From the NCBI GenBank assembly GCA_024231215.1, contig JAAEQR010000034.1, positions 12,668-76,667 on the forward strand: a DNA stretch of 64,000 bases, given 5' to 3'. Below, piece by piece: positions 29,161 through 47,905 of the stretch (positions are counted from its first letter, which is position 1; each line of letters opens with the position of its first letter). A program made the translations under genes and the position numbers. This DNA comes from PVC group bacterium (GTDB lineage Bacteria > Omnitrophota > Gorgyraeia > B26-G9). The notes under the pieces were generated by a model that saw nothing but the letters and a program-made list of their open reading frames with translations, was not told where the DNA came from and ran no database searches.

Positions 29161-29174
29161 AACAGAAAAAAGTG

Positions 29175-29220: not shown

Positions 29221-29460
29221 ATGGAAATAAACTCAATTTTTGAAATAGGTTGTAAGATTGCGATAGGAGGTGTGTGGATTTCTATAATTCTTGCACTTTT
29301 GTTTTTTTGGCATTGGTTTTGGGAAAAAGTTACTAATCGCTGGTTCGTCAGAGAAATCAGTGCTTCGGCTGCGTTAGAGGTTTTTGGTACGATTTCCTGC
29401 ACTATTATATCTATTGGTCTGATAATAGCGTTTATTGGTCTTTTAGTGGGGGAAGGTTAA
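29221..29460 (+). CDS. small membrane protein (2 TM)
   Basis: 79 aa; hydrophobic segments IAIGGVWISIILALLFF and GTISCTIISIGLIIAFIGLLV. Confidence 0.5.
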   Translation: MEINSIFEIGCKIAIGGVWISIILALLFFWHWFWEKVTNRWFVREISASAALEVFGTISCTIISIGLIIAFIGLLVGEG

Positions 29461-29464
29461 AACA

Positions 29465-29692
29465 ATGAAGAGAACGGATGAAAGGTGTAAAGTAGCTTTA
29501 CAATGTATTGTAGATCTGCAATCCATGGGAAGTTACTTCTTATGGGCAAAAATGGCAGCTATTGCAAGATATGCGTTAACCGGGGAAGTTGATGAACTGG
29601 AACCATGGCCTGTGCCTCAAGAAGTGAAAGATAAGATTGATCAGACATGCAGTGATTCCGGTTATACTGGCAAAATAGAGAAAAAGTGTTAG
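29465..29692 (+). CDS. hypothetical protein
   Basis: 75-aa ORF. Confidence 0.45.
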   Translation: MKRTDERCKVALQCIVDLQSMGSYFLWAKMAAIARYALTGEVDELEPWPVPQEVKDKIDQTCSDSGYTGKIEKKC

Positions 29693-29716
29693 TCATTCCC
29701 GTTATAGTGATATATA
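29689..29716 (+). promoter_or_regulatory. promoter AAAAAGTG-TTAGTC-16-TGaTATATA (second copy)
   Basis: TTAGTC 29689-29694; TGaTATATA 29708-29716; precedes the ATG at 29736. Confidence 0.5.
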
Positions 29717-29735
29717 GGGATGATGGGGGCATAAG

Positions 29736-30278
29736 ATGAACACATGGTTTACATCAGATTTACATCTGGGACATGAAAATATAATCGAGTATTGTAAGCG
29801 CCCTTTTAAAGATGGTGAGCATATGGACAAAACTCTTATTAGAAATTGGAATGAAAGAGTTAAAGATGATGATACAGTTTTCCATCTTGGAGATTTTTGT
29901 TTTAAAGGAGGATGGGAAGGTGGGGGGAATAAAGCTCGATATTGGGAAAATCAATTAAATGGTAAGGTTATTCATGTATCTGGAAATCATGATAAAAATA
30001 ATTCTACAAAATCAATTCTTACTCAAGCTATTTTTGAATTCGGTAATAAAAAAATTATAGCTCGGCATGTACCCTTTGAGAATACAAATGAAATTCCCTC
30101 GGAAATAGATTATGCGTTAGTAGGTCATGTACATGAGAAATGGAAACAGAAATGGTTATATGATGAGTTTAACTATAGGCTGAATATTCCAATGATAAAT
30201 GTTGGTGTGGATGTTTGGGACTTTAGACCTATTAAGTTAATAGAGATAATAAAATATTATGAGAGGGTGATAATATGA
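29736..30278 (+). CDS. metallophosphoesterase (calcineurin-like)
   Basis: SDLHLGHEN, GDFCFKG and VSGNHD: D-x-H / GD / GNH[DE] motifs of MPP enzymes. Confidence 0.7.
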   Translation: MNTWFTSDLHLGHENIIEYCKRPFKDGEHMDKTLIRNWNERVKDDDTVFHLGDFCFKGGWEGGGNKARYWENQLNGKVIHVSGNHDKNNSTKSILTQAIFEFGNKKIIARHVPFENTNEIPSEIDYALVGHVHEKWKQKWLYDEFNYRLNIPMINVGVDVWDFRPIKLIEIIKYYERVII

Positions 30279-33458: not shown

Positions 33459-33485
33459 TTGACAAAATAATTTGATATTATAAAT
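33459..33485 (+). promoter_or_regulatory. promoter AAAAAGTG-TTTGACA for the 17-gene sugar operon
   Basis: TTGACA 33459-33464 preceded by AAAAAGTG; AT-rich -10 candidates (TATTAT / TATAAAT) downstream; AAAGGAG SD and ATG at 33514. Confidence 0.45.
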
Positions 33486-33513
33486 TAAATATACATATAA
33501 AGGAGCAACATAG

Positions 33514-34512
33514 ATGCCAAAGATACTAATGCTTGATCCTAACCCTAAATCTGCAGTTTCTTTTTATCGCAGTATCGGGACTTTTTCATATCTTCACAGG
33601 TTAGACCCAAATGTTCATTACGAACTGCTTTCCGTTTACAACTGGAATACATGGATGGGCGCAGATATTCTGTATGTGCAGAGGCCATACGCTGACGATC
33701 ATCTTGGAGCGATAGTTGAAGCACAAAAATGTAATGTAAAAGTGTGGGTTGACACAGATGATTTACTTCATGAAATCCCGAATTACAATCCTAACCACAG
33801 AACTTTTAACAATCCTAAAGAAAAATTCCTGGATAATTTCTTAAACTCAGTAAAAAGAGCGGATGTTGTTACTGTTACAACTGAAGTTTTAAAGGATTAT
33901 TATTCTGAGTACAATGAGAATGTTCAGATAGTGGAAAACGCTCACAATGATTATGCTTTCCCTTTTATGAAACTTATCGGGGATTCAGCAAAGGCAATAA
34001 ACTGGAGAGGGAGCAACACTCACCGGATGGACGTTCTATCGGTTGCTCAACAGATAGTGAATGTCCGTGAAAAGCATAAAGACTGGAAATGGATTTTTGT
34101 CGGAAACGATTTATGGTATATAACAGAACTTCTCAAAGGGAACGCCATAGAGATTCCCGAAAAACCTATTCTGACATTCTTTGAACTCCTCAGAACCGTC
34201 GGCAGTTCTATACAGGTTGTCCCTCTCGTTGATAATAATTTTAATCGTGCTAAATCCTCTATATCCTGGATAGAGGCTACTTATGGGGGAATGACTACGG
34301 TTGCTCCGAACTTCCCAGAGTTTAATAAGCCGGGCTGTTTGTGTTATGAAGGAGAAGAACAGTTTGAATATTATCTTGAGAAATGTATTAAATCTAAAGC
34401 TTTTCGTCAGGAAAATTATGAGAAATCCTTTAAGTATATAAAGGAAAACTTACTGTTAAGTCAGGTTAACCGGAAAAGGATGGATATCATAAACGAGTTG
34501 AGGAATAAATGA
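33514..34512 (+). CDS. putative glycosyltransferase (GT-B-like), first gene of the sugar operon
   Basis: 332 aa; Rossmann-like C-terminal half; weak assignment. Confidence 0.3.
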   Translation: MPKILMLDPNPKSAVSFYRSIGTFSYLHRLDPNVHYELLSVYNWNTWMGADILYVQRPYADDHLGAIVEAQKCNVKVWVDTDDLLHEIPNYNPNHRTFNNPKEKFLDNFLNSVKRADVVTVTTEVLKDYYSEYNENVQIVENAHNDYAFPFMKLIGDSAKAINWRGSNTHRMDVLSVAQQIVNVREKHKDWKWIFVGNDLWYITELLKGNAIEIPEKPILTFFELLRTVGSSIQVVPLVDNNFNRAKSSISWIEATYGGMTTVAPNFPEFNKPGCLCYEGEEQFEYYLEKCIKSKAFRQENYEKSFKYIKENLLLSQVNRKRMDIINELRNK

Positions 34513-35027
34513 TAGTTGCAGATTATATAGTCAAGTATCTTGAAGATTATGGAGTAAAACACTGCTTCTCCGTTGTCGGTGGAGGGAGCATGTGGTTGAA
34601 CAACTCTTTCGGAAAATCAAAGAAAATTAAAACTGTATATATGCACCATGAACAGGCTTGCGCGATTGCCGCAGAGGGATATTCCCGAGTGAATAATGAT
34701 TTGTCTGTGGTTTGTGTCACCACTGGCCCCGGAGGATTAAACTGTCTTACAGGGGTAATGGGGCAATGGACGGATTCTGTCCCTGTCCTGTATATTTCAG
34801 GACAGGTTGATTCAAGAACAATCAAAACAAGTAATCTTCGTCAGTTGGGGGATCAGGAAGTTGATATAATTAGTGCGGTTAAACCAATAACCAAATTCTC
34901 TCTTTTATTAAGGGATAGTATTGATTTGTATTTTTGGTTGCGTATTATGATTAACACGGCGATGGCGCATAGGAGAGGGCCAGTGTGGATTGATATCCCC
35001 TGGGATGTTCAAAAAGAAAAGGTATAA
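34509..35027 (+). CDS. TPP-dependent enzyme, N-terminal (Pyr) domain subunit (ALS/YerE-like)
   Basis: YIVKYLEDYGVKHCFSVVGGGSMWL...HHEQACAIAAEGYSRV...VVCVTTGPGGLNCLTGV...DSVPVLYISGQV: canonical TPP_enzyme_N including the catalytic Glu in HEQ; stop overlaps the next ATG (TAATG). Confidence 0.75.
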   Translation: MIVADYIVKYLEDYGVKHCFSVVGGGSMWLNNSFGKSKKIKTVYMHHEQACAIAAEGYSRVNNDLSVVCVTTGPGGLNCLTGVMGQWTDSVPVLYISGQVDSRTIKTSNLRQLGDQEVDIISAVKPITKFSLLLRDSIDLYFWLRIMINTAMAHRRGPVWIDIPWDVQKEKV

Positions 35028-35452
35028 TGAATATAGAAAGATATGAGAACCCACTGATAATAGCTGGTCACGGAATACGCTTATCTGGCGCGATAGATTT
35101 ATTCCACGAATTGTTAGACAAGTTAAATATCCCCGTAGTTACAACCTTTAATGGATTTGATATAGTAGCTTCTGATCATCCGAATTTTGCAGGAAGAATA
35201 GGAACCATGGGTACTCCCGAAGGGAATAAGATATTAAGGGAAGCGGATCTGGTTTTGTGTATAGGGACTCGGAACAATGTCAGGCAAATAGGTTATAAGA
35301 AAGAGGCCTTCGCCAAGAGTGCAAGAAAAGTGGTTCTTGTGGATGTGGATGAAGATGAATTATATAAAACTGGCGTTGGTTTAAAAGTGAGAAGGTTCTG
35401 TTGCATGGATGCGAAACAATTTATTCAGGAGTGTTTGGATTACGATGATTGA
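35027..35452 (+). CDS. TPP-dependent enzyme, central domain subunit
   Basis: PLIIAGHGIRLSGA...LNIPVVTTFNGFDIVASDHPNFAGRIGTMGT...ADLVLCIGTR aligns with the ALS central domain; TGA overlaps the next ATG (ATGATTGA). Confidence 0.7.
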   Translation: MNIERYENPLIIAGHGIRLSGAIDLFHELLDKLNIPVVTTFNGFDIVASDHPNFAGRIGTMGTPEGNKILREADLVLCIGTRNNVRQIGYKKEAFAKSARKVVLVDVDEDELYKTGVGLKVRRFCCMDAKQFIQECLDYDD

Positions 35453-35999
35453 TCCATATAATTTTATAAAAGTATTAACAAAAAATTTACCGGAAGACGC
35501 TATAGTGGTTTGCGCTAATGGAACCCCATGCGTTACAATGTTTCAAGAAGGTGTTGTCAAGAAGGGGCAGAGGATCTTCTGGAACTCCGGATGTGCTGCC
35601 ATGGGTTATGCCCTTCCTGCTGCGATAGGGGCTCATTATGCAAGTGGCAAAGAAGTAATCTGCATAGAGGGTGACGGGAGTTTGATGTTTAATTTACAGG
35701 AACTTCAGACAATAGACCACCATGAGCTCCCGATTAAATTGTTCGTATTTAACAATGGTGGTTATCACTCAATAAAGGAAACTCAGGATGTTTTTTTTAA
35801 AGGCGATTATCATGGCAGTGCCTTGGGAGATGTTAGTTTTCCGGATTGGGAAGAAGTCGCGGAAACATTCAACTTCCCATATTTTGTTATGGATGGGGAC
35901 GATAGAGGTGTGATTGCTCACTTCCCTTTTAATAAGTTTAAAAATGTTTTTATTGAAGTTAAATTAGGTGAATATAAATTTAGGAGGCAGGAATTATGA
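35445..35999 (+). CDS. TPP-dependent enzyme, C-terminal (PP) domain subunit
   Basis: TPP-binding motif GDGSLMFNLQELQTIDHHELPIKLFVFNNGGY (GDG-x25-NN); start taken at the in-frame ATG 35445 overlapping the upstream stop, rather than track 35409. Confidence 0.75.
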   Translation: MIDPYNFIKVLTKNLPEDAIVVCANGTPCVTMFQEGVVKKGQRIFWNSGCAAMGYALPAAIGAHYASGKEVICIEGDGSLMFNLQELQTIDHHELPIKLFVFNNGGYHSIKETQDVFFKGDYHGSALGDVSFPDWEEVAETFNFPYFVMDGDDRGVIAHFPFNKFKNVFIEVKLGEYKFRRQEL

Positions 36000-36463
36000 A
36001 TGGTTATCAAGAGCCTTGTCCTAAATGCGGGACACTTTCTTCCGGCTGTTCGGTCTTCACGAACGGGGCGATTTCTCAAGACTTTTGTAAATGTCCTGAA
36101 TGCGGTATTGCTTTCCCAAAAAAGGGTTCAACGGCAAAAGTTGAAATAATTGATGATGAAGAATTCTTTTCGGTACCCAAACCAGAAAAATTCTCATTAA
36201 AAGAAATATGTATTTGCGCAGCAGTAAAAGCAGTTGATGGAACCATTATTCGTGGACACAGGCACAGGGATTGTAGAGATGGGATAATAAGGAGAGGGAA
36301 AGAACCCATGAAAGAATGGGCTGGAGATGGTTTTATCACTTCTTACGGGAGGTTCGTTGACAGGATAGAGGGTTACGAGTTGATGAAATCTATCGACTGG
36401 GAATCTGTTAATCCGGAAGGGTATCAGAAGTGTGAGTGGTTATTCTCGGAAGATTTATATTAA
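35996..36463 (+). CDS. zinc-ribbon protein with uncharacterised C-terminal domain
   Basis: CPKCG...CKCPECG; ATGA-coupled to the upstream gene. Confidence 0.45.
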   Translation: MNGYQEPCPKCGTLSSGCSVFTNGAISQDFCKCPECGIAFPKKGSTAKVEIIDDEEFFSVPKPEKFSLKEICICAAVKAVDGTIIRGHRHRDCRDGIIRRGKEPMKEWAGDGFITSYGRFVDRIEGYELMKSIDWESVNPEGYQKCEWLFSEDLY

Positions 36464-36478
36464 AAGAGAGGTATAATT

Positions 36479-37261
36479 ATGAATAAGTTAGAATACGAAA
36501 TGATTGAAACTCTTAAGCGCTTGAAGAATGATTATGGGTGTATACAGATTAAGGCTGAGTTCGAGAACGAGGGAAGTCGTCAGGTAGAACTTTGTCGGCT
36601 TAAAGATGTAATAAGCAAAGTAGACATACCGTTAATTCTTAAGATTGGCGGTGTAGAAGCAGTAACAGATATATACGAGGCCTTGACGATAGGGGCGAAG
36701 GGGATAGTTGCTCCCATGGCCGAAACTGCTTACGCGCTTTCTAAATTTATTGATGCTGTGGAAAAATTCGTTCCGAAGGATAATCGGGAAGATGTTGAAT
36801 TTGCCGTGAACATTGAGACTATTACAGCGTATGAAAATTTTGAAAAAATGCTTAAATTAAAGAACATTGATGTTCTCCAAAGCGTGACAGTCGGGCGGGT
36901 GGATTTTACAGGTTCACTCGGGGAAGATAGAAATTATGTTGATACAGTAACAATGCGTGAACTTTGCAAAAATATCTTTTCTAAAGCTAAGGCTAAAAAT
37001 TTACGAACAGCTTTGGGCGGGGCTATTTCTTCTGCGTCAGAAACTTTCCTGGAAACTTTAACTGAAGAAAATTTATTGAACAAATACGAAACTCGGAAAA
37101 TTGTATATGATATCGAAGGGTTAAAAACCTATAAGGAAGGTTTAGAGGAAGGAATAAAATTTGAACTTCAGTGGTTGAAAAGTAAAGAGAGATATTATCA
37201 TCTGATAGCAATTGAAGACGAAAAAAGAATAAAAATGTTGGAGGAGAGAGTCAATGGGTGA
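36479..37261 (+). CDS. TIM-barrel aldolase/lyase-like protein (HpcH/HpaI or PEP-utilising family?)
   Basis: 260 aa; KIGGVEAVTDI...IVAPMAETAYA resembles aldolase/lyase barrels; weak. Confidence 0.3.
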   Translation: MNKLEYEMIETLKRLKNDYGCIQIKAEFENEGSRQVELCRLKDVISKVDIPLILKIGGVEAVTDIYEALTIGAKGIVAPMAETAYALSKFIDAVEKFVPKDNREDVEFAVNIETITAYENFEKMLKLKNIDVLQSVTVGRVDFTGSLGEDRNYVDTVTMRELCKNIFSKAKAKNLRTALGGAISSASETFLETLTEENLLNKYETRKIVYDIEGLKTYKEGLEEGIKFELQWLKSKERYYHLIAIEDEKRIKMLEERVNG

Positions 37262-38300
37262 GTGTGGAATATGTGGTCATGAATTAAACAAAGACGTTCT
37301 GGTTCTGGAGAATATCCCGGAAAAAACATTCTGTTTCTCAGACAAAACTGTTACTTTAAACATCGCGAAGTGTGGTCACTGCGGAGTAGTGCAGTTATTT
37401 GACGTTCCATTAAACGATGATTTCAGGGATGTCCATCGAAGTATAGAATCAATGCCCGGCCACCGGATGAAAAAGAAGAAAGACTTGGACGATTTTATAG
37501 AAGAGTTTGGTTTGTGGAGCAAAAGGTTTTTCGAAATGGGTTGTGGCAATGGACAGTATTTGGATATTCTCAGGGAAATAGGTGTTGAGTGCGACGGGTA
37601 TGAAGCCAATGAAGACAACATAGATGAATGTATAGACAAAGAGTATTGTGTTTCCGACGGTGTTGCTTTTAAAGAGGAAATTTTTAATAAATATGATGTT
37701 ATTTTTTCTTTTTATTTTTTAGAGCATATGCCTGATCCGGTGGATGTCTTAACAAATGTTTATGACAAGCTTAACCCCGGAGGGATGATTTACATAGAAG
37801 TCCCGAACTATAAGTACATAGAAAAAGATGGGCTCTGGCTTGAGTTCACAAGAGACCACAGGTTTTATTATGACCTTTCTTCTATGAGATTTTTATTATC
37901 AAAAACTGGCTTCAAATTGCTTAAGATAACTCCGGGAGACTTGACTTTAAAAGTGATAGCGAAGAAACCGGACGACTTCGAGAATGTCCGGGAAAGCATG
38001 GAAAAAGACATAGTCGATTTTGATATATTAACTAACAAGATAGGAAATTATGTTATAGTTGGCGCAGGACATTATACTCAAACACTGTTAAACAAGACTG
38101 CTAATAAGCCTGTACAAATATATGATTCCGTTCCCGACAAGATAGGGAAAATTCTTTGTGGAGTGAAAATTTTACCCCAGGGAGAGATTCGGGATTGTGA
38201 ATTTAATAATATTATTATAAGTTGCGGGGCGTACAATCAAGAAGCGGAGAAAAATATTGAAAGACTTACGGAAGGAAAGAATATAATTATCTGGGGGTAG
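37254..38300 (+). CDS. SAM-dependent C-methyltransferase-like (N-terminal zinc ribbon + class I MTase + C-terminal Rossmann-like domain, TylC3/NovU architecture)
   Basis: CGICGHEL...CGHCG; MTase motif I FEMGCGNGQYLD; the three-part layout matches NDP-hexose C-methyltransferases. Confidence 0.55.
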   Translation: MGECGICGHELNKDVLVLENIPEKTFCFSDKTVTLNIAKCGHCGVVQLFDVPLNDDFRDVHRSIESMPGHRMKKKKDLDDFIEEFGLWSKRFFEMGCGNGQYLDILREIGVECDGYEANEDNIDECIDKEYCVSDGVAFKEEIFNKYDVIFSFYFLEHMPDPVDVLTNVYDKLNPGGMIYIEVPNYKYIEKDGLWLEFTRDHRFYYDLSSMRFLLSKTGFKLLKITPGDLTLKVIAKKPDDFENVRESMEKDIVDFDILTNKIGNYVIVGAGHYTQTLLNKTANKPVQIYDSVPDKIGKILCGVKILPQGEIRDCEFNNIIISCGAYNQEAEKNIERLTEGKNIIIWG

Positions 38301-38301
38301 C

Positions 38302-39402
38302 ATGTCGTATACACAGAGAGAAGAACAAGTAAGAGAGTCTATTGAAGTTCGCAAACCTGTCGCATGGGCTAAGATTCAGCAAACTGACCAGAGAGTAAAA
38401 GAAGGAAAAAGCATCGCCCTTTTACAACTGCAATACAGATATGTCTGTAATGAAGTTTGCAAACACTGTGCTATAGAACGGTTTAAAGTTAACTTGGAAG
38501 GTAGAAAATTAACTCCTGCCGATGTGAAAGATATTGCAGATCAGGCTCATGAGTATGGGCTATTTTCTATCTGCATTTCGGGAGGTGAACCGTTAATCTT
38601 TCATGATCTGGAACAGGTAATAGACGCTATCGGCCCAGAAAGATTCATATTATCAATGGACACTAATGGGTTGGCTTTATCTCAACATGAGATAAAATGG
38701 CTGGTAACGAAAGGGGTTGACCGTATTCACCTGAGTATTGATGGGTTACAGGAAAATCACGACGAGTTTAGACACGAAGAAGGAGCATGGCAGCATAATA
38801 TAGACATGCTTCCATATTGTAAACAGTATGGGCTTGGAGTTGTTGTGAACATAGTTGCCACTAAAGATTTGGTAAGAAGCAGAGAAATAGAAGAACAACT
38901 TGAGTTTATACAGAAGTTTGGTTTTCATGCTTCTTTGATTTATGCGAAACCAGTTGGTAATTTTGAAGAGGCTGGAGACCAGGTTTTAAACAAAAAAGAT
39001 TTTGCATATCTTGAAACTTTAACGAAAAAGTATAACTGTTCAACTCACCTTACTCCCGCTTACGGCAGAGATGTTGGCTGTCTGTGTTTCAAGCGCCACT
39101 TTTCAATACTGCCAAACGGGAAAGTCCTTCCCTGTCCATGGCTCCCGATTTCTATGGGGAACGTACTGGAAGAAAAACTGGAAACAATTATAACAGGGTC
39201 GTTGATGAATCCATGGTTTAGCTGGAAGCATAAACACACTTGTCATTCGGGAAATCAGGATTCTTATTTTTATAAAAATGTTGTTTCTCAGTTAGATGAA
39301 CTCCACGATCTCTTTGGATATCCGGTTGACTGGAAATTGTTGAATTGGCATTTTGAATACTTCAGGAAGAGTTCCACTAAAATTACTGAGAAGGGGAGCT
39401 AA
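38302..39402 (+). CDS. radical SAM enzyme with SPASM/twitch-like C-terminal Cys cluster
   Basis: CNEVCKHC (C-x3-C-x2-C), ISGGEPL, C-terminal CLCFKRHFSILPNGKVLPCPW. Confidence 0.75.
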   Translation: MSYTQREEQVRESIEVRKPVAWAKIQQTDQRVKEGKSIALLQLQYRYVCNEVCKHCAIERFKVNLEGRKLTPADVKDIADQAHEYGLFSICISGGEPLIFHDLEQVIDAIGPERFILSMDTNGLALSQHEIKWLVTKGVDRIHLSIDGLQENHDEFRHEEGAWQHNIDMLPYCKQYGLGVVVNIVATKDLVRSREIEEQLEFIQKFGFHASLIYAKPVGNFEEAGDQVLNKKDFAYLETLTKKYNCSTHLTPAYGRDVGCLCFKRHFSILPNGKVLPCPWLPISMGNVLEEKLETIITGSLMNPWFSWKHKHTCHSGNQDSYFYKNVVSQLDELHDLFGYPVDWKLLNWHFEYFRKSSTKITEKGS

Positions 39403-40371
39403 ATGGAGATTGGTGAAAGAGATATTGTAGAGGAAGATATAAAAAAAGTATTATCTGAAAATCTGCCATGGAACAGGCTGAGAAATAAAACGATAGCGGT
39501 TTCCGGTTCAAGAGGTTTTATTGCTTCGTGGATAGTTAAATTATTAGAATCAATACAGGAAGAATATAATATTACAATCTGGCATATCAATAAACCTGAA
39601 TATGATATTAACAGGTCTCTGTTCAGTATTGGTGTCCCCAAGAGAGTAGATTATATTTTTCATGCAGCCAGTTATGCGTCACCTCTAAAGTTCAAAGAAA
39701 ATCCTGTAGATGTGATCTTGCCGAATACGATTGGTACTCATAACCTGTTGAAATTGGCAGATGCGAAAGAGGCTGAGTTTGTATACTTCAGCACATCGGG
39801 GGTTTACGGGTGGCATGATTTTGATGACTACCCTTTGTCCGAAAAACAATTCGGCAGACTTGATTGTTCTGAAGTAAAGAACTGTTATCTTGAATCAAAA
39901 AGACTGGGGGAACAGTTGTGTGTTTCTCACAGTTATCAGTATGATATAGAAATCAAGATTCTCCGGCTGGGGATATGCTATGGCCCGGGGTTAAGCCTGG
40001 ATGATGGTCGCGTGATGAATACTTTTATAAAGAAAATACTTGATAAAAAAGAACTACCTGTATACAATGAGCATGTCTATCGGAGTTTTATGTATATAAC
40101 GGATGTTCTTAGCGCAATTTTTACAATTTTATTCCACGGGGAAAATAGCCCATATAATGTATCAGCAGACAAAGAAATTTCCATCCTTCAATTAGCCCAA
40201 TTGTTTTCTTCCATGTACCCGAACTCAAAATTGAGTTACCTAAAACGGACAGACAGGTTGAGTGTTGACTTCAACAGGACATGGATGAATACAGGAAAAT
40301 TGAAAAATCTCGGCTGGGAACAAAGAGTCAGCTTAGAAGATGGTATAGAAAGAACAGTGGAGAGTTACTAG
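39403..40371 (+). CDS. NAD-dependent epimerase/dehydratase (extended SDR)
   Basis: Gly-rich IAVSGSRGFIAS and catalytic Y-x3-K (YLESKRL). Confidence 0.75.
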   Translation: MEIGERDIVEEDIKKVLSENLPWNRLRNKTIAVSGSRGFIASWIVKLLESIQEEYNITIWHINKPEYDINRSLFSIGVPKRVDYIFHAASYASPLKFKENPVDVILPNTIGTHNLLKLADAKEAEFVYFSTSGVYGWHDFDDYPLSEKQFGRLDCSEVKNCYLESKRLGEQLCVSHSYQYDIEIKILRLGICYGPGLSLDDGRVMNTFIKKILDKKELPVYNEHVYRSFMYITDVLSAIFTILFHGENSPYNVSADKEISILQLAQLFSSMYPNSKLSYLKRTDRLSVDFNRTWMNTGKLKNLGWEQRVSLEDGIERTVESY

Positions 40372-41561
40372 TGAGAAAAATATATTACAATGAAGCGATA
40401 ATTGATGAAAACGAAATAAATTCTATATGCCAGTTTATAACAGGGAAAGCCAACAGGCTTGCATATGGAGAAGAAGTTTTAGTGACAGAAAAGAAGTTAG
40501 CTGATTTTTTAAAAGTCAAACATTGTCTTCTGACTAATTCGGGGTCTTCCGCAAACTTGTTGGCTTTTATGGCATTGACATCCCCTGAATTAAAAGAGAG
40601 AAGGATAGAGCGAGATGACGAGATAATAACCACTGCGTTAGGTTTCCCTACAACTATTTCTCCTATCGTGAATTATGGAGCCGTCCCGGTCTTTGTGGAT
40701 GTTGATCTATGGACTATGAATATAAACATAGAAAGAATGAAAGAAGCTTTATCTCCGAAAACAAAAGCTGTAGTGGTGGCGCATACTCTCGGGAATCCTG
40801 CCAATATAGATGCTATAATGGGCTTCTGTGAAGAAAACGGGTTATACTTTATTGAGGACAACTGTGATTCTTTAGGCAGTAAATATAACAATAAACTTAC
40901 AGGCACTTTCGGTGATATTGGAACTTCTTCTTTTTACCCTGCACATGCGATAACAATGGGCGAAGGTGGAGCGGTATACACAAATAATACAGAACTGCAT
41001 AACATAATGCGCTCTATGAGAGACTGGGGAAGAGATTATAAATGTTCGGAATGTACCTGGGACTGCAAGAAAAGATTTGATTCCGGGTATGATTGCAGAT
41101 ATACATATTCTCATTTTGGATATAATTTAAAAGTAACTGAAATGCAAGCTTTAATTTTAAACAAACAAATAGATAAGCTTCCCATGATAATTGAAAAAAG
41201 GAAACTTAACTGGAAGAAATTACGAGTTAAGCTGGATGGTTTAGGTTTTCCTTTTCAAAGCCCTACTCCCAATTCTGATCCATTGTGGTTCTCTTTTGTT
41301 TTAATAGCAAAAGAACATGACAGGGACGACTTAACAGAATATTTAGAAAGAAACGGAATAGGGACGAGAGTTATTTTCGGCGGGAATCTTACAAAACAAA
41401 AATGTTTCAAAACGCTTTCTCCGCTCTACAGGGTGGTGGGGGATCTCAAAAATTCTGACTATATAATGGAGAATGCGTTTTTTATCGGGTGCCATCCTGG
41501 AATGACAGATGAAGACATGGATTACATTGTGGAGGCAATAGAGAGGTATGTTCAAAGATGA
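40371..41561 (+). CDS. DegT/DnrJ/EryC1-family PLP/PMP enzyme with His replacing the Schiff-base Lys (E1/ColD-type sugar 3-dehydratase signature)
   Basis: Family motifs LTNSGSSANLLAF, AVPVFVDVD, KTKAVVVAHTLGNP, FIEDNCDSLGSKY, GDIGTSSFYPAHAITMGEGG; the position of the conserved Lys (FSFhxxKxiT) holds His (PAHAIT); Cys-rich insert CSECTWDC...DCRY; GTG start overlapping the upstream stop. Confidence 0.65.
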   Translation: MRKIYYNEAIIDENEINSICQFITGKANRLAYGEEVLVTEKKLADFLKVKHCLLTNSGSSANLLAFMALTSPELKERRIERDDEIITTALGFPTTISPIVNYGAVPVFVDVDLWTMNINIERMKEALSPKTKAVVVAHTLGNPANIDAIMGFCEENGLYFIEDNCDSLGSKYNNKLTGTFGDIGTSSFYPAHAITMGEGGAVYTNNTELHNIMRSMRDWGRDYKCSECTWDCKKRFDSGYDCRYTYSHFGYNLKVTEMQALILNKQIDKLPMIIEKRKLNWKKLRVKLDGLGFPFQSPTPNSDPLWFSFVLIAKEHDRDDLTEYLERNGIGTRVIFGGNLTKQKCFKTLSPLYRVVGDLKNSDYIMENAFFIGCHPGMTDEDMDYIVEAIERYVQR

Positions 41562-42237
41562 CAAACTCGTAAAGGTAAAGAACACAATATTCAATGATGA
41601 AAATTTAATAAAAATAGGGGATCTGTTCTGGACAAAAGAAGACATCCCTGCGTATGAGTATTTAAAAGATAGCCATAAAAGAGAAATGGAAAGTATTCTC
41701 CCACATCTTGTGGGGAATGAAGTTGCCGTTCAAGCTGGCGGTCACTGCGGATTCGTGATCAAAGAATTAGAAGAACATTTCAAAAGGATTTACACTTTTG
41801 AACCGGATAACACAATGTTCCTGGCTCTTTGCTTGAATGTACCAAATAAAAATGTTTATAAGTTTCAAGCCTGTCTGGGGGAAAGACACAAAATGGTTGA
41901 TATGGAAATAAATCCTATCTGCCCTCATGCTGGAGCAAAGTATGTTAAGGGCAGGGGAAATATTCCAATGCTGGTTGTAGATGATCTCGCTTTAGATTGT
42001 TGTGACCTACTGATGCTCGATCTTGAAGGGAATGAGTATAAAGCCGTTCTTGGAGCATCTGAAACAATTCAGAAATTCCACCCCGTATTGTGTGTAGAAA
42101 GATACTGGGGGCCGAGAACAACTGGGCTTCCAGAGTCATTTTTTGACTCCCTCCTGGGCTACTTAAATTATGAATTAGTTGATAGAGTTGGAGAGAACAA
42201 ACAGGATTTTATCTATAAATATAAGGGGGTCAAATGA
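41548..42237 (+). CDS. FkbM-family methyltransferase
   Basis: VAVQAGGHCGFV and LMLDLEGNEYKAVLGA match the Methyltransf_21 (FkbM) core. Confidence 0.6.
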   Translation: MFKDDKLVKVKNTIFNDENLIKIGDLFWTKEDIPAYEYLKDSHKREMESILPHLVGNEVAVQAGGHCGFVIKELEEHFKRIYTFEPDNTMFLALCLNVPNKNVYKFQACLGERHKMVDMEINPICPHAGAKYVKGRGNIPMLVVDDLALDCCDLLMLDLEGNEYKAVLGASETIQKFHPVLCVERYWGPRTTGLPESFFDSLLGYLNYELVDRVGENKQDFIYKYKGVK

Positions 42238-43109
42238 AACCATATGTTGTCGTCACACCCGGCTACAATTCTTTTTGCGGGGGAATAAAAGTATTACATC
42301 GATTAACCCATTTTCTGAACGAGCATGGAATTCCCGCATACTCAACGGCGGGGGGGACTCCGCCGGACTGGAATGTAAGATTCTTAAAAGACCTGACGCC
42401 ATACGAAATGAAAGAAATACAACAAACTGGTATAGCTGTTTATCCGGATGTTGTATGGGGGAACCCTCTTAAATTCAATAACTGTGTCCAGTATGATTTA
42501 CAGCAAATGAGACCGATCCAGTCTAATATGCTTGGTGTCTCGCTGGAGAATTGTTTCGGTTCTAAAGTAAAACCAGATTTGACTATGATGGTAATATACA
42601 TGGAAGACCTGTTTAAGCTTCCGGAGAAAGAAGAAAGAAGAGGAACCTGTTATTATAAAGGGAAAGGAAAAACAGAATGTTCTGATCCGGACTGGTTAAA
42701 TATTGTCAACATAAGCAGAGAAGATCTGGCCAGATTATATCAAACTTCTGAATTATTAGTCTGCGCGGATAATATGACACAGACTACGGTTGAAGCGAGA
42801 TTATGCGGATGCCCTGTAAGGATGATAGAACCCGGTATGTTGTCATGGGAGAATTATCGTAATGATAACTGGGGAATGAACGGGATAATAATAAATGATG
42901 ATAAAACTATTGAACAGGCGGTTTTAGAACTGCCAGCTTTTAAACAGGATTATGATGAAAGGATGAAAAAGAACAGGGAAGAGTTCCTCCAGTTTGTTGA
43001 GGTTACACAAAACAGGCAAGTGGATTATATTCCACTGGAGTTGGCTTTTCATCCAGGGGTATTTGGGATTAGCCCGGAAATAATGAAAATTTTTGGAGAG
43101 AGGGGATAA
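42234..43109 (+). CDS. hypothetical protein (possible glycosyltransferase)
   Basis: 291 aa, ATGA-coupled. Confidence 0.4.
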   Translation: MKPYVVVTPGYNSFCGGIKVLHRLTHFLNEHGIPAYSTAGGTPPDWNVRFLKDLTPYEMKEIQQTGIAVYPDVVWGNPLKFNNCVQYDLQQMRPIQSNMLGVSLENCFGSKVKPDLTMMVIYMEDLFKLPEKEERRGTCYYKGKGKTECSDPDWLNIVNISREDLARLYQTSELLVCADNMTQTTVEARLCGCPVRMIEPGMLSWENYRNDNWGMNGIIINDDKTIEQAVLELPAFKQDYDERMKKNREEFLQFVEVTQNRQVDYIPLELAFHPGVFGISPEIMKIFGERG

Positions 43110-43110
43110 T

Positions 43111-43818
43111 ATGAGTTACCTTGAACTTAGGGGAAAAGTAGAACAGAACAAACAGCCGATCTGCCATGACTCAGTGTTCATTGCTATTTACACCAATAAG
43201 TGTAAAGAATATTGTGATCAAAGATTTTTCAGTAACCTTTTCAGTTCTAATCTCAATCATGCTTCAGTTAATGTTGTTGATAATTCATCTGATATAGAAT
43301 ACACAAAGAAGTTAGAGAAAATTTGCGAGGACAAAGCCAATGTGTATAGGATTGATATAGATGAGAAAAGGAAAGATGTCCGTTTTCTCCGGAATGTTAC
43401 TGAAAGTGTTTTATTATTGAGAGAAAAATTTTTAGAGGGGAATTGGAAATATTTTATTATACTTGAATCCGATGTTCTGCCGAAAGACAATGAATGGTTG
43501 ACTTCTTTTATGGAGGTGACGGATGAAGCCGATATAATCGGCGGGCTTTATTATATGGGGTTTCATGATCCCGGACTATGGCAGGGGGAAATAAGAGTTG
43601 TCCCGACGCACCATGTTCTCTCCGGTTGTACTTTATATAAAAGAGAAGTGATCGAAAAATATCCTTTTCGGTGGAGCGAAGAGAATCTAGGGGCTTTCCC
43701 GGATGCGTACATTTGTTTTGACGCGGGGAATGAATACAGGTTAGCTAATTACACCAAAATCGTGTGTGATCATTTAGAAAAATCTCAGGGGGATAGGGGA
43801 CATGGAAGAATCTCTTAA
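43111..43818 (+). CDS. hypothetical protein (possible GT-A-like glycosyltransferase)
   Basis: Start at MSYLEL with a GGAGAGAGGGGA SD; acidic motif ILESDVLP. Confidence 0.35.
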   Translation: MSYLELRGKVEQNKQPICHDSVFIAIYTNKCKEYCDQRFFSNLFSSNLNHASVNVVDNSSDIEYTKKLEKICEDKANVYRIDIDEKRKDVRFLRNVTESVLLLREKFLEGNWKYFIILESDVLPKDNEWLTSFMEVTDEADIIGGLYYMGFHDPGLWQGEIRVVPTHHVLSGCTLYKREVIEKYPFRWSEENLGAFPDAYICFDAGNEYRLANYTKIVCDHLEKSQGDRGHGRIS

Positions 43819-44245
43819 TAAAAAAGAAAAGTTTTTTGAGTCTGAAACAAAAAGGTTTATAGAGTATTTCGGCTTAAAAAACTGGGAAATAGAAATTTGC
43901 CGAACGGAGTCCGATGATTCTCGGGCTTCCTGTATTGCGAGAGAATCATTTGACGGTTCTTTGTCTGACAGGCTGGCTTTAATTCAATATGATAAGGAAT
44001 GGATAAATAGCGAAATTCCTTATGAAGAAATATCAAGGTCTGCATTCCACGAAGTTATGGAAATCCTTTTAATGGTTTTGCGGAATTATAATAAATATCG
44101 GGACAAGCATCTTTCATACGGAACCATAGATTCAGAGGTACATAATATAATAAGAACGCTTGAGAATACAATATATGAGGATTTTTTAAAACCAAAAATA
44201 AGGAAGAAAAATGGCAACAAAAAACATAGAAAGTCAAACTCGTAG
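43802..44245 (+). CDS. hypothetical protein
   Basis: 147 aa, last gene of the coupled block. Confidence 0.45.
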   Translation: MEESLNKKEKFFESETKRFIEYFGLKNWEIEICRTESDDSRASCIARESFDGSLSDRLALIQYDKEWINSEIPYEEISRSAFHEVMEILLMVLRNYNKYRDKHLSYGTIDSEVHNIIRTLENTIYEDFLKPKIRKKNGNKKHRKSNS

Positions 44246-44786
44246 AGGCCCTTTTGGTGGCGCTCCCGGTCAGGGCAGACCTCCAAAAAGCAAACAGTTA
44301 AAAAACTATGACAAAGCTTTAAAAATTCTTGATGATAATATCGAGAAGGCTTTAGGGGTGTTGGTTGATGGTTTAGAAGCAACAAAAGATATTTACAATA
44401 AAAGCGGAGAAATAATTGCAGAAGATGTTCCAGATAATTATTACCGATTTAATTGTGCTTGTGTGCTAATCAAGAAGGTACTTCCTGATAAAAAGGCAAA
44501 GGAAATCACTGGCCCCGGCGGGGCGCCACTATTACCAACTACTGTTATCGACCGGAGGAAAGTTGTTATGAACATTGTCCGGAAACTTGATGAACTGGAT
44601 CTGGATGAAGTGAAGGAAATGCAGGAAAAGGGTGATTTTAAATTATTTAAAGATGCCGATTATGTGATCGAAGAAGAGGCAGAGGAAGAGAATAATAATG
44701 CTGGAAACAGAATCTCAGAAGACATCGGAAGAGCTACAGAGGGAGAAGCGGAAGAAGAGGTGGAAAGAGCGGAAGAAGAAGATTGA
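44211..44786 (+). CDS. putative terminase small subunit / DNA-binding protein
   Basis: 191 aa, basic N-terminus, acidic C-terminal tail, immediately upstream of the large terminase. Confidence 0.35.
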   Translation: MATKNIESQTRRGPFGGAPGQGRPPKSKQLKNYDKALKILDDNIEKALGVLVDGLEATKDIYNKSGEIIAEDVPDNYYRFNCACVLIKKVLPDKKAKEITGPGGAPLLPTTVIDRRKVVMNIVRKLDELDLDEVKEMQEKGDFKLFKDADYVIEEEAEEENNNAGNRISEDIGRATEGEAEEEVERAEEED

Positions 44787-46338
44787 TGCCGGGGAAGATC
44801 CGAAAGATTTAAAAACTTTTGAAAGGGCTCAAAAGGCTGTTGAACTTCTTCGGATGGATTTCGCAGCAGGGAAAGAAATCCTGGAGGAGTATGAAAGAGA
44901 AGCTTTAACAGCTGTTGTTGTTAAAAAGTGTACAGATGATTTTTATTACTTCTGTAAGTATATATTGGGGAATGATTTGATGATGAGGGAGCCTCATCGT
45001 AGATGGTGTGATGATCATCAAAAAACTGTTTTGGCAAACACAAAACGTGTTATGAGATTAAAGCCGCGTAAGACATTTAAGACTACAATTTATGGACTTG
45101 GCTTTTTATTATGGGCTTGGGGCTGTGTCAGTCATGAAATAAGATTTTTCTATACCTCTTCCAACAAACTGCTTTTAGACGAAGTTGCGGATGGGCTGTC
45201 TCAATATATTGGTACAGAGAAAAATGAGACTTTTTATTCATATCTGTTCGGAGTAACTAAAGACCCGGAAGCCAAGAATACAAGCGATGTTATGAATGTT
45301 CAAGGGAGAGAGGGAAAAGGTTTTTCTCTTATCCTTAGAACTTCCGGGGGAAGCACAGTTGGTATTCACCCAAATGTAATCATTATAGATGACCCTGTCG
45401 GGGAAGATGACCGGAAATATGAGAGTGAACGAAAATCAAAGGAATTATGGTTTGATACACTGCAACCTCTTCTGGTTTCTTTCTATGATGTTAAGACCGG
45501 GATAGAATTTGAATCAATTTTTTACATAGGGACAAGGTGGCACTTAAGAGATTTAGTCTGGCATATACAAGAGGAATTAGTAAAGAAAAAAGGTCAGGTT
45601 TGGGATATAGAATCTGAATCAATAACGAAGGACGGTACTCCCACTGGTGAACCATCCTATCCCGATTTTATGCCAGCAGAAAAGATCAAAGAATTCCGTA
45701 TAAGTATGTCAGAAGAGTTCTTCGCAGCACAAGAACTTAACAACCCAATTGCCCAGGGGATGATTGTTTTTGATTTAGGGAAACTGCACTTTATTCGTCA
45801 GGAACAGTTTGACGCGATAAAATTGTACGGAAAAATCATCTGTGCTTTTGACCCTGCACTGGGGAAGGCCTCTGGTGATTACCCCGCAGTATGGTTCATT
45901 CATTATTACAATGATACAATCACTTTCTTTGACGCAATTGATAAAAAAATAGAAATAGCTTTACTCGTTCATCAAATCGCCTCTAAAAATAAATTATACG
46001 GGTGTCGGACTTTAGTGTATGAAGACAACAATGCAATGCTTATCGGTCAAAGTCTGGAGAAAGCGCACAAAAGAATAAACCACAAAATAGTATTAGACCC
46101 AGTTCACCATGGGAGCGGCAGCAATAAGAGAGAAAGAATTGTTTCCTGTCAGGACGTATTGTATAGTGGCGTAGCTCAGTTTATGAATGATTATGAGAAC
46201 AGATACCCGGAGGCTATGAATCAAGTAGCTTTTTACGGGGCTTATGGTCACGATGATTTTCCGGATGCAATGGAGATGGGAATCAGTTACTTAAACCAAG
46301 AACATTTTAAATTTGTCAGGCACGAAGAATGTCTTTAA
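44698..46338 (+). CDS. terminase large subunit
   Basis: ATPase: LKPRKTFKTT and IIIDDPVGEDD; nuclease: ICAFDPALGKASGDYPAVWF and GHDDFPDAME; N-terminal extent uncertain (overlaps upstream ORF). Confidence 0.75.
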   Translation: MLETESQKTSEELQREKRKKRWKERKKKIDAGEDPKDLKTFERAQKAVELLRMDFAAGKEILEEYEREALTAVVVKKCTDDFYYFCKYILGNDLMMREPHRRWCDDHQKTVLANTKRVMRLKPRKTFKTTIYGLGFLLWAWGCVSHEIRFFYTSSNKLLLDEVADGLSQYIGTEKNETFYSYLFGVTKDPEAKNTSDVMNVQGREGKGFSLILRTSGGSTVGIHPNVIIIDDPVGEDDRKYESERKSKELWFDTLQPLLVSFYDVKTGIEFESIFYIGTRWHLRDLVWHIQEELVKKKGQVWDIESESITKDGTPTGEPSYPDFMPAEKIKEFRISMSEEFFAAQELNNPIAQGMIVFDLGKLHFIRQEQFDAIKLYGKIICAFDPALGKASGDYPAVWFIHYYNDTITFFDAIDKKIEIALLVHQIASKNKLYGCRTLVYEDNNAMLIGQSLEKAHKRINHKIVLDPVHHGSGSNKRERIVSCQDVLYSGVAQFMNDYENRYPEAMNQVAFYGAYGHDDFPDAMEMGISYLNQEHFKFVRHEECL

Positions 46339-46642: not shown

Positions 46643-47905
46643 ATGCCCTATTCAAATGAGAGACTGCAAGAGATCTATAACTATTCTCGGGAGCATGGAG
46701 AGAATGAAACATGTGCTTTCTTTAAGATAAAACACGAAACCCTTTCTCGCACAATAAGAGAATACCATATCAGGTTTAAAACCAGAGAGGGACAGGATCA
46801 ATATGATTATAGTCAAAAAGAAAAGCATAATTTTCAGAAAGTAGTAAATAATGGAGCAATGGAACTTTCTTTAAAAACCCATGAGATAAAGACGATAGAT
46901 GAATTGCTTGCCTACGCGGAAATCGACACTGATCTGTGGGAAGTCTGGAAGAGTACAACAAACGTGTGGGGTTCTTCTGTTAACCCAAACTATCAGGTTA
47001 AAGCATGGCTTAAAAGAAAGACATGTGAGATAGATATTAAAAAAATCTGTTCAGAGGTTATCGAAAGGATAGGCAAATACAGTAAACCATCCAAGATCAA
47101 ACGGAAACTGGACAAAGAAGGGTTTCTATGGGAGGTTGGACTCATTGACCACCATGTAGGGCAACTCAGTTATGATAAGGAAGTCGGAGAGGACTATGAT
47201 GTAGATATAGCCATGCGAATAGCGAAAGAGGCTGTTGAATTTTTATGTGACAAGATTACTCCTTACAAAATAAACAAGGTTTTGTATATAATCGGAAACG
47301 ACTATTTGAATGTTGCATCTTCAGATAATACTACTACTGGAGGAACAACCCAGGATGAAGACGGAAGGTATCACAGGTCTTTCATGTGCGGTGTAGATAT
47401 TCATGTAGACGCCATCAACAGGCTTAAGAAGGTTGCGGATGTTCATGTTCTCCAGGTTCCCGGAAACCATTCAACGGAACGGGAATTTTATTTAGGATCT
47501 GTTCTACAAGCGTGGTACAGGGGAGATGAGAATGTTCTTATAGATAACAGCCCGATGTCAAGAAAATATTACAGGTATGGAAGTAACCTGTTGGGCTTTG
47601 CCCACGGGGACAAGAATCTAAAACTTGACAGACTGCTCGGCTTAATGCCGTTGGAGGCGAAGAAGGATTGGCCTCTGGCAAGTAACTATGAATGGCATTT
47701 GGGACATCTCCACCATGACGCGAAGATGCAGCATAATTTAAAGTCAGAGAGGGGGATAAAAATCAGAAGGCTAAACACTTTAATACCCTTAGATGCGTAT
47801 CACTATAATGCTGGCTATGTAAGAATAAGAGAAACACAGTCTTTTCTGTGGCACCCGACCTTGGGTGACATGGTTCATATCAATTACAGGATAAAGGAGA
47901 ATTAG
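46643..47905 (+). CDS. metallophosphoesterase-domain protein (Mre11/SbcD-like?)
   Basis: YIIGNDYLN, VPGNHSTE, GFAHGD, HLGHLHHD: MPP motifs; N-terminal HTH-like region. Confidence 0.45.
   Translation: MPYSNERLQEIYNYSREHGENETCAFFKIKHETLSRTIREYHIRFKTREGQDQYDYSQKEKHNFQKVVNNGAMELSLKTHEIKTIDELLAYAEIDTDLWEVWKSTTNVWGSSVNPNYQVKAWLKRKTCEIDIKKICSEVIERIGKYSKPSKIKRKLDKEGFLWEVGLIDHHVGQLSYDKEVGEDYDVDIAMRIAKEAVEFLCDKITPYKINKVLYIIGNDYLNVASSDNTTTGGTTQDEDGRYHRSFMCGVDIHVDAINRLKKVADVHVLQVPGNHSTEREFYLGSVLQAWYRGDENVLIDNSPMSRKYYRYGSNLLGFAHGDKNLKLDRLLGLMPLEAKKDWPLASNYEWHLGHLHHDAKMQHNLKSERGIKIRRLNTLIPLDAYHYNAGYVRIRETQSFLWHPTLGDMVHINYRIKEN

Follow-up and report, generated by a model that had tools for sequence, protein, structure and literature searches.

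Phages carry glycosyltransferases and scattered sugar-nucleotide genes. In the scheme set out for acyl-branched sugars by Steitz et al. (PMC9306805), a hydroxylated 2-keto acid is formed by a pyruvate aldolase and joined by a YerE-like, thiamine diphosphate (ThDP)-dependent enzyme to cytidine diphosphate (CDP)-4-keto-3,6-dideoxyglucose, the product of E1 and E3, after which a reductase finishes the sugar. In that work ErwE took an aldolase-made keto acid together with a ketone analogue of the CDP-sugar, and the acceptors tried with MMAR_2332 and MyGE were all aldehydes; knockouts in the Mycobacterium marinum caryophyllose cluster are cited, including that of MMAR_2331 ('aldolase/citrate lyase family'), and the Rhodopseudomonas palustris cluster adds an S-adenosylmethionine (SAM) methyltransferase (PMC9306805). 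A 2025 review names viruses as unexplored for YerE-like enzymes. Here we describe a set of 13 genes of this type, on the plus strand at 33514–43818 of a 64-kb window (the whole stretch of DNA analysed), which is plainly phage DNA. The window comes from a contig of 89,976 bp that stands in the database as a 'PVC group bacterium' metagenome-assembled genome (MAG).

Our favoured reading, held with some reservation, is that these genes form a functional, horizontally mobile phage cassette for the late half of a CDP-linked, YerE-type pathway to an acyl-branched 3,6-dideoxyhexose, together with three glycosyltransferases. Profile searches placed the open reading frames (ORFs) in the families foreseen by the original prediction (TPP_enzyme_N/M/C, DegT, Radical_SAM with SPASM, Epimerase, Methyltransf_21, HpcH_HpaI and Methyltransf_23; Table 1), and its idea of a deoxysugar tailoring pathway inside a phage is supported and can be sharpened. 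Like the yersiniose, erwiniose and caryophyllose pathways, the cassette combines an E1-type 3-dehydrase, a YerE-like ThDP carboligase, an adjoining putative pyruvate-type aldolase, a short-chain dehydrogenase/reductase (SDR) predicted to be NAD(P)H-dependent, and glycosyltransferases; the SAM methyltransferase of the R. palustris cluster and, in the bacterial versions of the cassette, the origin from CDP-glucose are also matched. It differs in being phage-encoded, in having no DdhA/DdhB or E3, in dividing the ThDP enzyme among three polypeptides, in the added radical-SAM/SPASM enzyme and Y16D-domain protein, and in an E1 with a variant Cys motif and a truncated N-terminus. The gene set fits the published scheme (PMC9306805), and we therefore take it to encode the later steps of a pathway of this kind, to which C-methylation and a radical-SAM reaction have been added. 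On this reading the cassette is a phage-borne variant of a known bacterial pathway type, its new features being the viral location and a ThDP carboligase conserved in three pieces.

In the pathway that we propose, CDP-4-keto-6-deoxy-D-glucose would be provided by the host, since neither a cytidylyltransferase (by tblastn at E values up to 1) nor a 4,6-dehydratase is present in the 64-kb window, as had been noted originally. The E1/RfbH homologue would take off the C-3 hydroxyl with pyridoxamine 5'-phosphate (PMP), using electrons from a host reductase, and the HpcH-type aldolase would convert pyruvate and an aldehyde to a hydroxylated 2-keto acid. The three-subunit carboligase would decarboxylate this keto acid and add the acyl carbanion to the C-4 ketone, giving a tertiary-alcohol branch, after which the SDR (g09) would reduce a keto group, and the zinc-ribbon C-methyltransferase, the FkbM methyltransferase and the radical-SAM/SPASM enzyme would tailor the sugar further. 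Soluble glycosyltransferases, co-expressed with packaging and head genes, would transfer the product late in infection. The order of the steps, the aldehyde partner, the exact product and the roles of the radical-SAM and Y16D-domain proteins are put forward as a model. The original prediction had cited, as an example, the two-carbon branch that YerE adds in yersiniose biosynthesis; the YerE-like enzyme stands, but the aldolase implies a longer acyl branch derived from an aldol-type 2-keto acid, and a two-carbon branch is not required.

The ThDP enzyme is encoded by three successive ORFs (g02–g04), as the original prediction of an acetolactate synthase (ALS)/YerE-like enzyme split in three had it. 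The fragments are 54–69% identical to an unsplit, 586-residue phage orthologue on contig L006, g02 being 69% identical to its N-terminal part. The best solved match of this unsplit orthologue is JanthE (PDB ID: 8rph; 5.5e-97), with 329 bits as against 236 for the best acetolactate synthase, and JanthE is called a YerE-like enzyme by its authors. The ALS scores of the window ORFs (NCBIfam) all lie far below the cutoffs. The assignment, made via the JanthE structure match, supports a predicted YerE-like carboligase rather than an ordinary acetolactate synthase. Phosphonate biosynthesis, with phosphoenolpyruvate mutase and phosphonopyruvate decarboxylase as the aldolase-like/ThDP pair, was considered and rejected in view of all three ALS domains, the YerE-like match and the CDP-sugar neighbours.

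The same three-way split is found in three phage contigs, namely the window, its closest relative (L016) and a contig of a different structural lineage (L015/L034), and the break points are identical in the window, L015 and L016. Two further viral contigs have a two-way split, and the bacterial orthologues are all single proteins of 593–609 residues. The split lost ∼28 and ∼45 linker residues and the C-terminal tail. In L015, an HNH/NUMOD4 endonuclease lies between the N and middle pieces, while in L016 small ORFs and a cupin fill both gaps. Among the three split lineages, nonsynonymous change (pN) is 0.23–0.28 at saturated synonymous change (pS, 0.75–0.89), and for g03 alone pN is 0.25–0.27 and pS 0.75. 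Such low pN at saturated pS refutes the idea, raised with the original prediction, that the ORFs are pseudogene fragments: the split is inherited and under purifying selection, not a product of decay, and it points to three fragments that work as a three-subunit enzyme.

The split was probably created by insertion of a mobile endonuclease. Phage genes are known to be split by homing endonucleases, and the present case resembles them: the enzyme is interrupted at its domain borders, an endonuclease lies between the pieces in one relative, and the fragments are kept under selection. Naturally split ThDP enzymes include the two-subunit sulfopyruvate and phosphonopyruvate decarboxylases. Here, in contrast, the split is three-way and would make the middle domain a polypeptide of its own, and we know of no precedent for this in ALS-type enzymes.

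The E1 homologue g10 is an RfbH equivalog (PRK15407, 502 bits against a cutoff of 423) and matches Yersinia E1 (PDB ID: 3bcx) at 7e-110. The histidine of its FYPAH motif aligns with His220 of Yersinia E1, the position marked by the H220K mutant (PDB ID: 3bb8), bearing out the predicted DegT homologue with His at the Lys position, and the GTG start is backed by three phage orthologues that begin at the same MRKIYYNE. The [2Fe-2S] cluster of E1 has ligands that we take to be Cys193, Cys251, Cys253 and Cys261. Three of these (Cys193, 253 and 261) are kept in g10; Tyr replaces Cys251, and the loop, shortened by one residue, has a Cys at position 257. The changed pattern is common to four phage E1s, whereas the E1s of bacterial cassettes keep Cys251, 253 and 261; in the phage clade (window, L001, L006 and L015) ∼37 N-terminal residues are also missing.

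The SDR g09 scores far below the 4,6-dehydratase cutoffs and has STSG where dehydratases have S/T-D-K. A hidden 4,6-dehydratase was ruled out on these scores and active-site residues, and by sequence g09 is classed as a reductase/epimerase-type SDR, in agreement with the original prediction.

The aldolase g06 scores above the HpcH_HpaI gathering score, in line with the aldolase-like barrel that had been foreseen. It has 1118 homologues, the best-scoring ones 61–78% identical, in a strongly conserved family, and its family profile gives a weak match (8e-4) to the 2-keto-3-deoxy-sugar aldolase YfaU. In the cassettes compared, the aldolase gene always adjoins the ThDP enzyme gene, and by analogy g06 is the proposed maker of the 2-keto-acid donor.

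The methyltransferase g07 matches the C-3'-methyltransferase TcaB9 at 1.5e-4 over residues 31–225, and its same-position counterparts in bacteria (24–41% identity) contain Methyltransf_14 and, faintly, Methyltransf_13; it is probably a sugar C-methyltransferase. The zinc Cys pairs and the methyltransferase domain of the original description are present, but the TylC3-like layout finds little echo in g07 itself. In the radical-SAM enzyme g08, both Radical_SAM and SPASM are above their gathering scores, and the CX3CX2C motif (C49/C53/C56), C260/C262/C278 and C314 are conserved, with one late Cys being Gln in the window. No specific radical-SAM subfamily cutoff is reached (NCBIfam), and orthologues 49–58% identical lie inside bacterial cassettes. 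The FkbM methyltransferase g11, likewise as predicted, passes the Methyltransf_21 gathering score and gives 31.4 bits with TIGR01444, below its cutoff; FkbM genes are also present in bacterial cassettes.

The predicted zinc-ribbon protein g05 also has a T4_Y16D domain. The slot that this gene occupies, between the ThDP enzyme and the aldolase, is taken up by a T4_Y16D protein in five viral contigs, the window among them, and by a HAD-IIA phosphatase in two viral contigs and the majority of the bacterial cassettes examined; L039 and L040 have no gene there (the comparison includes window 35996–36463, L032 9219–10004, L035 and L036). The differing content may reflect displacement or unrelated insertion. 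A 142–164-residue NUDIX protein, weakly like GDP-mannose mannosyl hydrolase, occurs in the bacterial cassette and two phage versions (L001 200–628; L006 2913–3350; L033 6917–7411); the window has none, its SDR gene running straight into the E1 gene.

The two to three putative glycosyltransferases of the original prediction became three: g12 (GT-B) and g13 (GT-A) by predicted folds that match solved glycosyltransferases, and g01 by its PHROG annotation. For g01, no Pfam, NCBIfam or PDB match was obtained, even as a 4-sequence profile; its orthologues stand at the same position in L006/L038, L015/L034 and L016, and it is unrelated to g12 (hhalign). The g12 family is rare, with 19 known members, on cassette-bearing contigs wherever this could be checked, and a fold search of BFVD with g12 returned only distant viral glycosyltransferases. 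The fold of g13 resembles A197 of Sulfolobus turreted icosahedral virus (STIV) and R699 of Mimivirus. Cassette-less relatives have a 251-residue gene ahead of their terminase; it was tested as a g13-like glycosyltransferase and is not one.

Homologous cassettes, fixed around the aldolase gene, occur in cultured Nitratifractor salsuginis and Aliarcobacter butzleri and in Omnitrophota and Elusimicrobia MAGs. The bacterial order is NTP-transferase, 4,6-dehydratase-type SDR, (NUDIX), ThDP enzyme, HAD, aldolase, C-methyltransferase (Methyltransf_14), radical-SAM/SPASM enzyme, SDR, (FkbM) and DegT; the Nitratifractor and Aliarcobacter cassettes are shorter, having no C-methyltransferase or radical-SAM gene, and in A. 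butzleri an adh_short SDR and a 3-dehydroquinate (DHQ)-synthase-like gene take the place of HAD. The leading genes encode a glucose-1-phosphate cytidylyltransferase (TIGR02623, 416–425 bits, cutoff 300) and a CDP-glucose 4,6-dehydratase (501 bits, Nitratifractor). Since the bacterial cassettes start with CDP-glucose enzymes, the pathway would be CDP-linked in the phage as well, the nucleotide being judged by analogy with these homologous cassettes. The bacterial cassettes lie in polysaccharide loci or, in A. butzleri, in a flagellin-glycosylation locus beside NeuB/NeuC/NeuA, Maf and flagellins, and the surface-glycan neighbours in other genomes include a Wzx-type flippase with GT2 and GT4, and GtrA with GT2.

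A scan with an alignment of the phage radical-SAM enzymes found 15 bacterial loci (Elusimicrobia, Omnitrophota, Victivallaceae, Desulfobacterales, Smithellaceae and several candidate phyla radiation (CPR) lineages, including a complete Wolfebacteria genome), and most of the longer ones carry the same neighbours; a single-sequence scan of the genome contigs gave no match. With the same gene order, bacterial and phage proteins are 45–64% (aldolase), 49–58% (radical SAM) and 45–53% (E1) identical, and on these comparisons the bacterial cassette is the evident source of the phage cassette. The bacterial cassette, itself uncharacterised, is complete, has an unsplit ThDP enzyme and lies inside surface-glycan loci, whereas the phage cassette has lost the early genes and HAD and includes glycosyltransferases of the phage's own.

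Among phages, relatives of the cassette were found in at least 32 IMG/VR contigs; it is complete in seven, and ∼25 carry a more distant aldolase–ThDP–E1–SDR set. No cytidylyltransferase was found in the contigs with close cassettes, and a few of them have a 4,6-dehydratase-like SDR. A second, more distant group of about 20 putatively viral IMG/VR contigs (L041–L060, L065) combines the aldolase and E1 with two SDRs and a ThDP enzyme in one piece, with neither the radical-SAM enzyme nor the methyltransferase. Terminase relatives at ∼55% identity have no cassette, which marks it as accessory and mobile; as a mobile module it recurs among phages, and in bacteria it is widespread.

Deposited phages provide few parallels. 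Among 50,697 phage records, the aldolase and the radical-SAM enzyme have no homologue, and the YerE-like ThDP enzyme has only matches of ≤31% identity, mostly unannotated and otherwise acetolactate synthase genes, several in host-like records. For E1, the same records hold relatives of 32–34% identity in some cyanophages and one 48% match in a 2.6-kb unannotated 'Salmonella phage' fragment. The cyanophage proteins, annotated as DegT or 'CDP-4-dehydro-6-deoxy-D-glucose 3-dehydratase' (e.g. Synechococcus phage S-H68), are likewise phage-borne E1/ColD-family dehydratases, although only 32–34% identical. No report of a viral YerE-type pathway was found in the searchable literature (phage with caryophyllose, YerE-like or rfbH).

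We infer that the most likely acceptor of the sugar is a virion protein, and this is the weakest inference of the whole model. A phage-chosen acceptor of this kind is modestly favoured by the predicted late co-expression with packaging and head genes, placement in the head module (in L015 the cassette sits between a Mu-F-like head gene and cement and capsid genes), soluble glycosyltransferases tied to phages, and the absence of lipid-carrier machinery: no flippase, polymerase or initiating transferase was found among the 13 genes, and no membrane segment in any cassette protein. Other viral glycan machinery, such as STIV A197 and the chlorovirus and mimivirus sugar pathways, likewise has soluble GT-A or GT-B enzymes, with or without methyltransferases, near structural genes, as does mycobacteriophage virion glycosylation (Freeman et al. 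2023, as described in a citing paper). The mycobacteriophage-type systems use ordinary host nucleotide sugars, whereas here the genes would specify an elaborate sugar-tailoring pathway with a ThDP carboligase. As a tentative possibility, uncultured phages may decorate virions, or another acceptor of their own choosing, with a higher-carbon, C-branched, C-methylated 3,6-dideoxy sugar, made from hijacked host CDP-sugar by a three-polypeptide YerE-type carboligase that homing-endonuclease invasion created; this would be the first viral acyl-branched-sugar pathway. The same chemistry could instead serve the host cell surface (O-antigen, capsule, S-layer or flagellin glycan), where a remodelled receptor would block superinfection or the adsorption of progeny to debris, as in seroconversion. 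We regard this as rather unlikely, although two points favour it: the bacterial cassettes serve surface glycans, among whose genes they lie in all the bacterial genomes examined, and the phage relies on a host able to make CDP-4-keto-6-deoxyglucose, hence one with related surface sugars. Some relatives of the phage lineage also carry tyrosine recombinases. Set against these are the missing flippase, polymerase, ligase and lipid-carrier-initiating enzyme, the confinement of the g12 family, where checked, to cassette-bearing contigs, the packing of the genes in the late packaging and head array, not in an early or lysogeny region, and the absence of an integrase from the ORF scans of the window.

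That the cassette is decaying cargo, or mis-assembled bacterial DNA whose pathway no longer works, might be suggested by a ThDP enzyme in three ORFs with ∼100 fewer residues of linkers and tail than bacterial orthologues, an E1 short of its N-terminus and one Cys ligand, the absent cytidylyltransferase, dehydratase, HAD and NUDIX genes, and a contig binned as 'PVC group bacterium'. Identical break points in three diverged contigs, nonsynonymous change of ∼0.25 with synonymous sites saturated, intact catalytic motifs, ORFs that are full-length relative to phage orthologues with coupled starts and ribosome-binding sites, same-strand phage genes on both flanks and the presence of the cassette in several phage lineages make this very unlikely. 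Transfer of the sugar to phage DNA, as glycosylated hydroxymethyl bases that counter restriction, is slightly less probable still: no dCMP/dUMP hydroxymethylase or thymidylate-synthase-like ORF was seen in the ORF scans of the window, beyond which lie ∼26 kb of the contig, a DNA glucosyltransferase ranks only 48th among the fold matches, and the phage encodes a C5 cytosine methylase fragment instead. Least probable of all is a non-glycan small molecule, an acyloin or keto-acid-derived metabolite, with the DegT, SDR and methyltransferase proteins acting on substrates that are not nucleotide sugars. Carboligation by YerE-like enzymes is promiscuous in vitro (PMC12247030), and the radical-SAM enzyme, the Y16D protein and the aldolase have no assigned roles; yet E1 matches a CDP-sugar enzyme at equivalog level, the bacterial cassettes always open with CDP-glucose enzymes and close with glycosyltransferases, and the phage cassette has three glycosyltransferases.

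Several points weigh against our reading of the cassette as a working CDP-sugar pathway with a phage-chosen acceptor. The phage-clade E1 is without the Cys251 ligand and the ∼37 N-terminal residues, and no E3-type reductase was found among the cassette ORFs (Pfam, NCBIfam) or in the four bacterial cassettes with Pfam tables, so a general cellular reductase would be needed. The assembly of an ALS-type enzyme from three polypeptides is a prediction only. The likening of g09 to YerF, and of the aldolase to MMAR_2331/ErwI, is by family description, and neither Methyltransf_13 nor Methyltransf_14 was detected in g07 (Pfam). The HAD phosphatase of most bacterial cassettes (not that of A. butzleri) is missing from the phage cassette, and the early enzymes could sit in the ∼26 kb of the ∼90-kb contig that lies outside the window. 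As to the acceptor, the capsid protein has the same length (308 residues) in relatives without the cassette, and the bacterial pathway feeds cell-surface glycans, which favours host-surface remodelling.

A full late-stage pathway to a carbon-branched deoxysugar, built on a ThDP carboligase, is unreported for any virus in the searchable literature. A working cassette would mean that exotic glycans, destined for virus particles or host surfaces, are made by phages of anaerobic and candidate phyla about which little is known, and would bear on receptor masking, on escape from immunity and defence, and on host range. As an experiment run by nature, the conserved three-gene ThDP enzyme suggests that the N, middle and C domains of an ALS-type enzyme can function as individual subunits that need neither linkers nor a C-terminal lid, and the phage ThDP genes offer new YerE-like catalysts for tertiary-alcohol synthesis. 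The >1100 aldolase homologues, some from cultured Campylobacterota, indicate a very widespread uncharacterised sugar cassette in bacteria.

Table 1. Cassette genes, gene junctions and adjoining features, in window coordinates.
Feature	Position	Strand	Length (aa)	Remarks
Promoter-like TTGACA-16-TAAATT	33459–33486	+		10/12 consensus matches; in 67-nt gap before g01
g01, putative glycosyltransferase	33514–34512	+	332	phrog_7162 'glycosyltransferase' 1.3e-31, full length
g02, ThDP N-terminal (Pyr) domain	34509–35027	+	172	TPP_enzyme_N 1.7e-33; catalytic HEQ glutamate
g03, ThDP middle domain	35027–35452	+	141	TPP_enzyme_M 7.1e-33
g04, ThDP C-terminal (PP) domain	35445–35999	+	184	TPP_enzyme_C 5.2e-26; GDGS...NN ThDP/Mg motif; C-terminal tail missing
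g05, zinc ribbon and T4_Y16D-domain protein	35996–36463	+	155	phrog_839 1.5e-6; orthologues carry PF26092 T4_Y16D
g06, HpcH/HpaI ('aldolase/citrate lyase') family class II aldolase	36479–37261	+	260	HpcH_HpaI 28.6 bits, gathering score 25
g07, SAM methyltransferase with N-terminal Cys4 zinc ribbon	37254–38300	+	348	Methyltransf_23 1e-21; Cys pairs CGIC, CGHC
g08, radical SAM with SPASM/twitch-type C-terminal domain	38302–39402	+	366	Radical_SAM 3.3e-19 (70 bits); SPASM 5.9e-8 (33 bits)
g09, extended SDR	39403–40371	+	322	Epimerase 3.5e-30; YxxxK present
g10, E1/RfbH-type PMP-dependent CDP-4-keto-6-deoxyglucose 3-dehydrase	40371–41561	+	396	DegT family; GTG start
g11, FkbM-family methyltransferase	41548–42237	+	229	Methyltransf_21 27.7 bits, gathering score 22.7
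g12, GT-B fold glycosyltransferase	42234–43109	+	291	predicted fold
g13, GT-A fold glycosyltransferase	43111–43818	+	235	predicted fold
g14, protein without family match	43802–44245	+	147	Pfam, NCBIfam, PHROG searched
Small-terminase candidate	44211–44786	+		overlaps cassette array
Large terminase	44698–46338	+	546	intein-free
ATGA overlaps	34509, 35996, 42234	+
TAATG junction	35025–35029	+
ATGATTGA junction	35445	+
ATGGGTGA junction	37254	+
TAG-c-ATG junction	38298–38304	+
TAAATG junction	39400	+
TAGTG junction	40369	+

Between 33514 and 44245 the plus strand carries a tight chain of 14 ORFs, where the original prediction had counted a 17-gene operon; the junctions that it listed are all present (Table 1), and the cassette ORFs are full-length relative to phage orthologues, with coupled starts and ribosome-binding sites. 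The last ORF, g14, is shared only with L001, where it is present as two ORFs, and with no family match it is probably phage backbone rather than part of the pathway. The cassette stands directly ahead of the terminase, as had been described, g14 overlapping the small-terminase candidate at 44211. The coupled packing is real, but the proposed single transcript ending at 44245 is not self-contained: overlaps of 35, 89 and 26 nt link the genes that follow, up to and including the terminase, and no convincing terminator-like site was found between the cassette and the terminase genes, which places the cassette within a longer late gene array and not in a separate operon. Tight coupling is ordinary for phage late genes and is unremarkable by itself. 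The promoter proposed at 33459 is the region's top plus-strand match and lies in the right place, in the sole sizeable gap, but it is a consensus match only, and such matches are frequent in the region (56, as against 41 ± 6 in shuffles).

The phage setting is given by the terminase (100% identical to GY853_01780), portal, major head protein, DNA polymerase III alpha, gp32 and DnaB. The minus strand of the first 27.6 kb encodes gp32, polymerase III alpha fused to a uracil-DNA glycosylase (UDG) domain, DnaB, an SNF2 helicase and a cytosine methylase, and a plus-strand array from 29 kb on contains the terminase, portal, scaffold and major head protein. The polymerase gene (2928–6602, minus strand) encodes 1224 residues, with PHP, NTPase and finger domains and the UDG-superfamily domain at the C-terminus. 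No tRNA genes were found in the window, megablast gave no DNA-level match of the region to deposited phages, and terminase peptide patterns had no match in IMG/VR. The description as a myovirus could not be verified: no sheath protein was found, PHROG scans of ten tail-region ORFs left the morphotype undecided, and the relatives' capsid genes match the BPP-1-type GP7/Bbp16 families. Both ends of the window cut an ORF, a RecA-like one (1–560, minus strand) on the left and a structural one on the right, showing that the contig continues on both sides.

Many terminase large subunits of related phages (P0004, P0007, P0024, P0028, P0031 and others) are 600–930 residues long and contain intein, Hint or LAGLIDADG domains. 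Between terminase and portal, a 420-residue ORF (46643–47905, plus strand) matches phrog_704, 'DNA repair exonuclease'. The GC content is 0.24–0.30 at 24000–30000 and the coding strand switches at ∼27.65–29.2 kb, and this low-GC, strand-switch region may be an origin or early-promoter region. Within it, a gene weakly like GATase_4 adjoins an Amidoligase_2 gene (24321–26615, minus strand), a pair that is frequent in phages. Among the replication genes, a 303-residue protein (9680–10591, minus strand) gives weak matches to clan-A glycoside hydrolases (GH10, GH5 and GH42) and could be tied to glycan handling.

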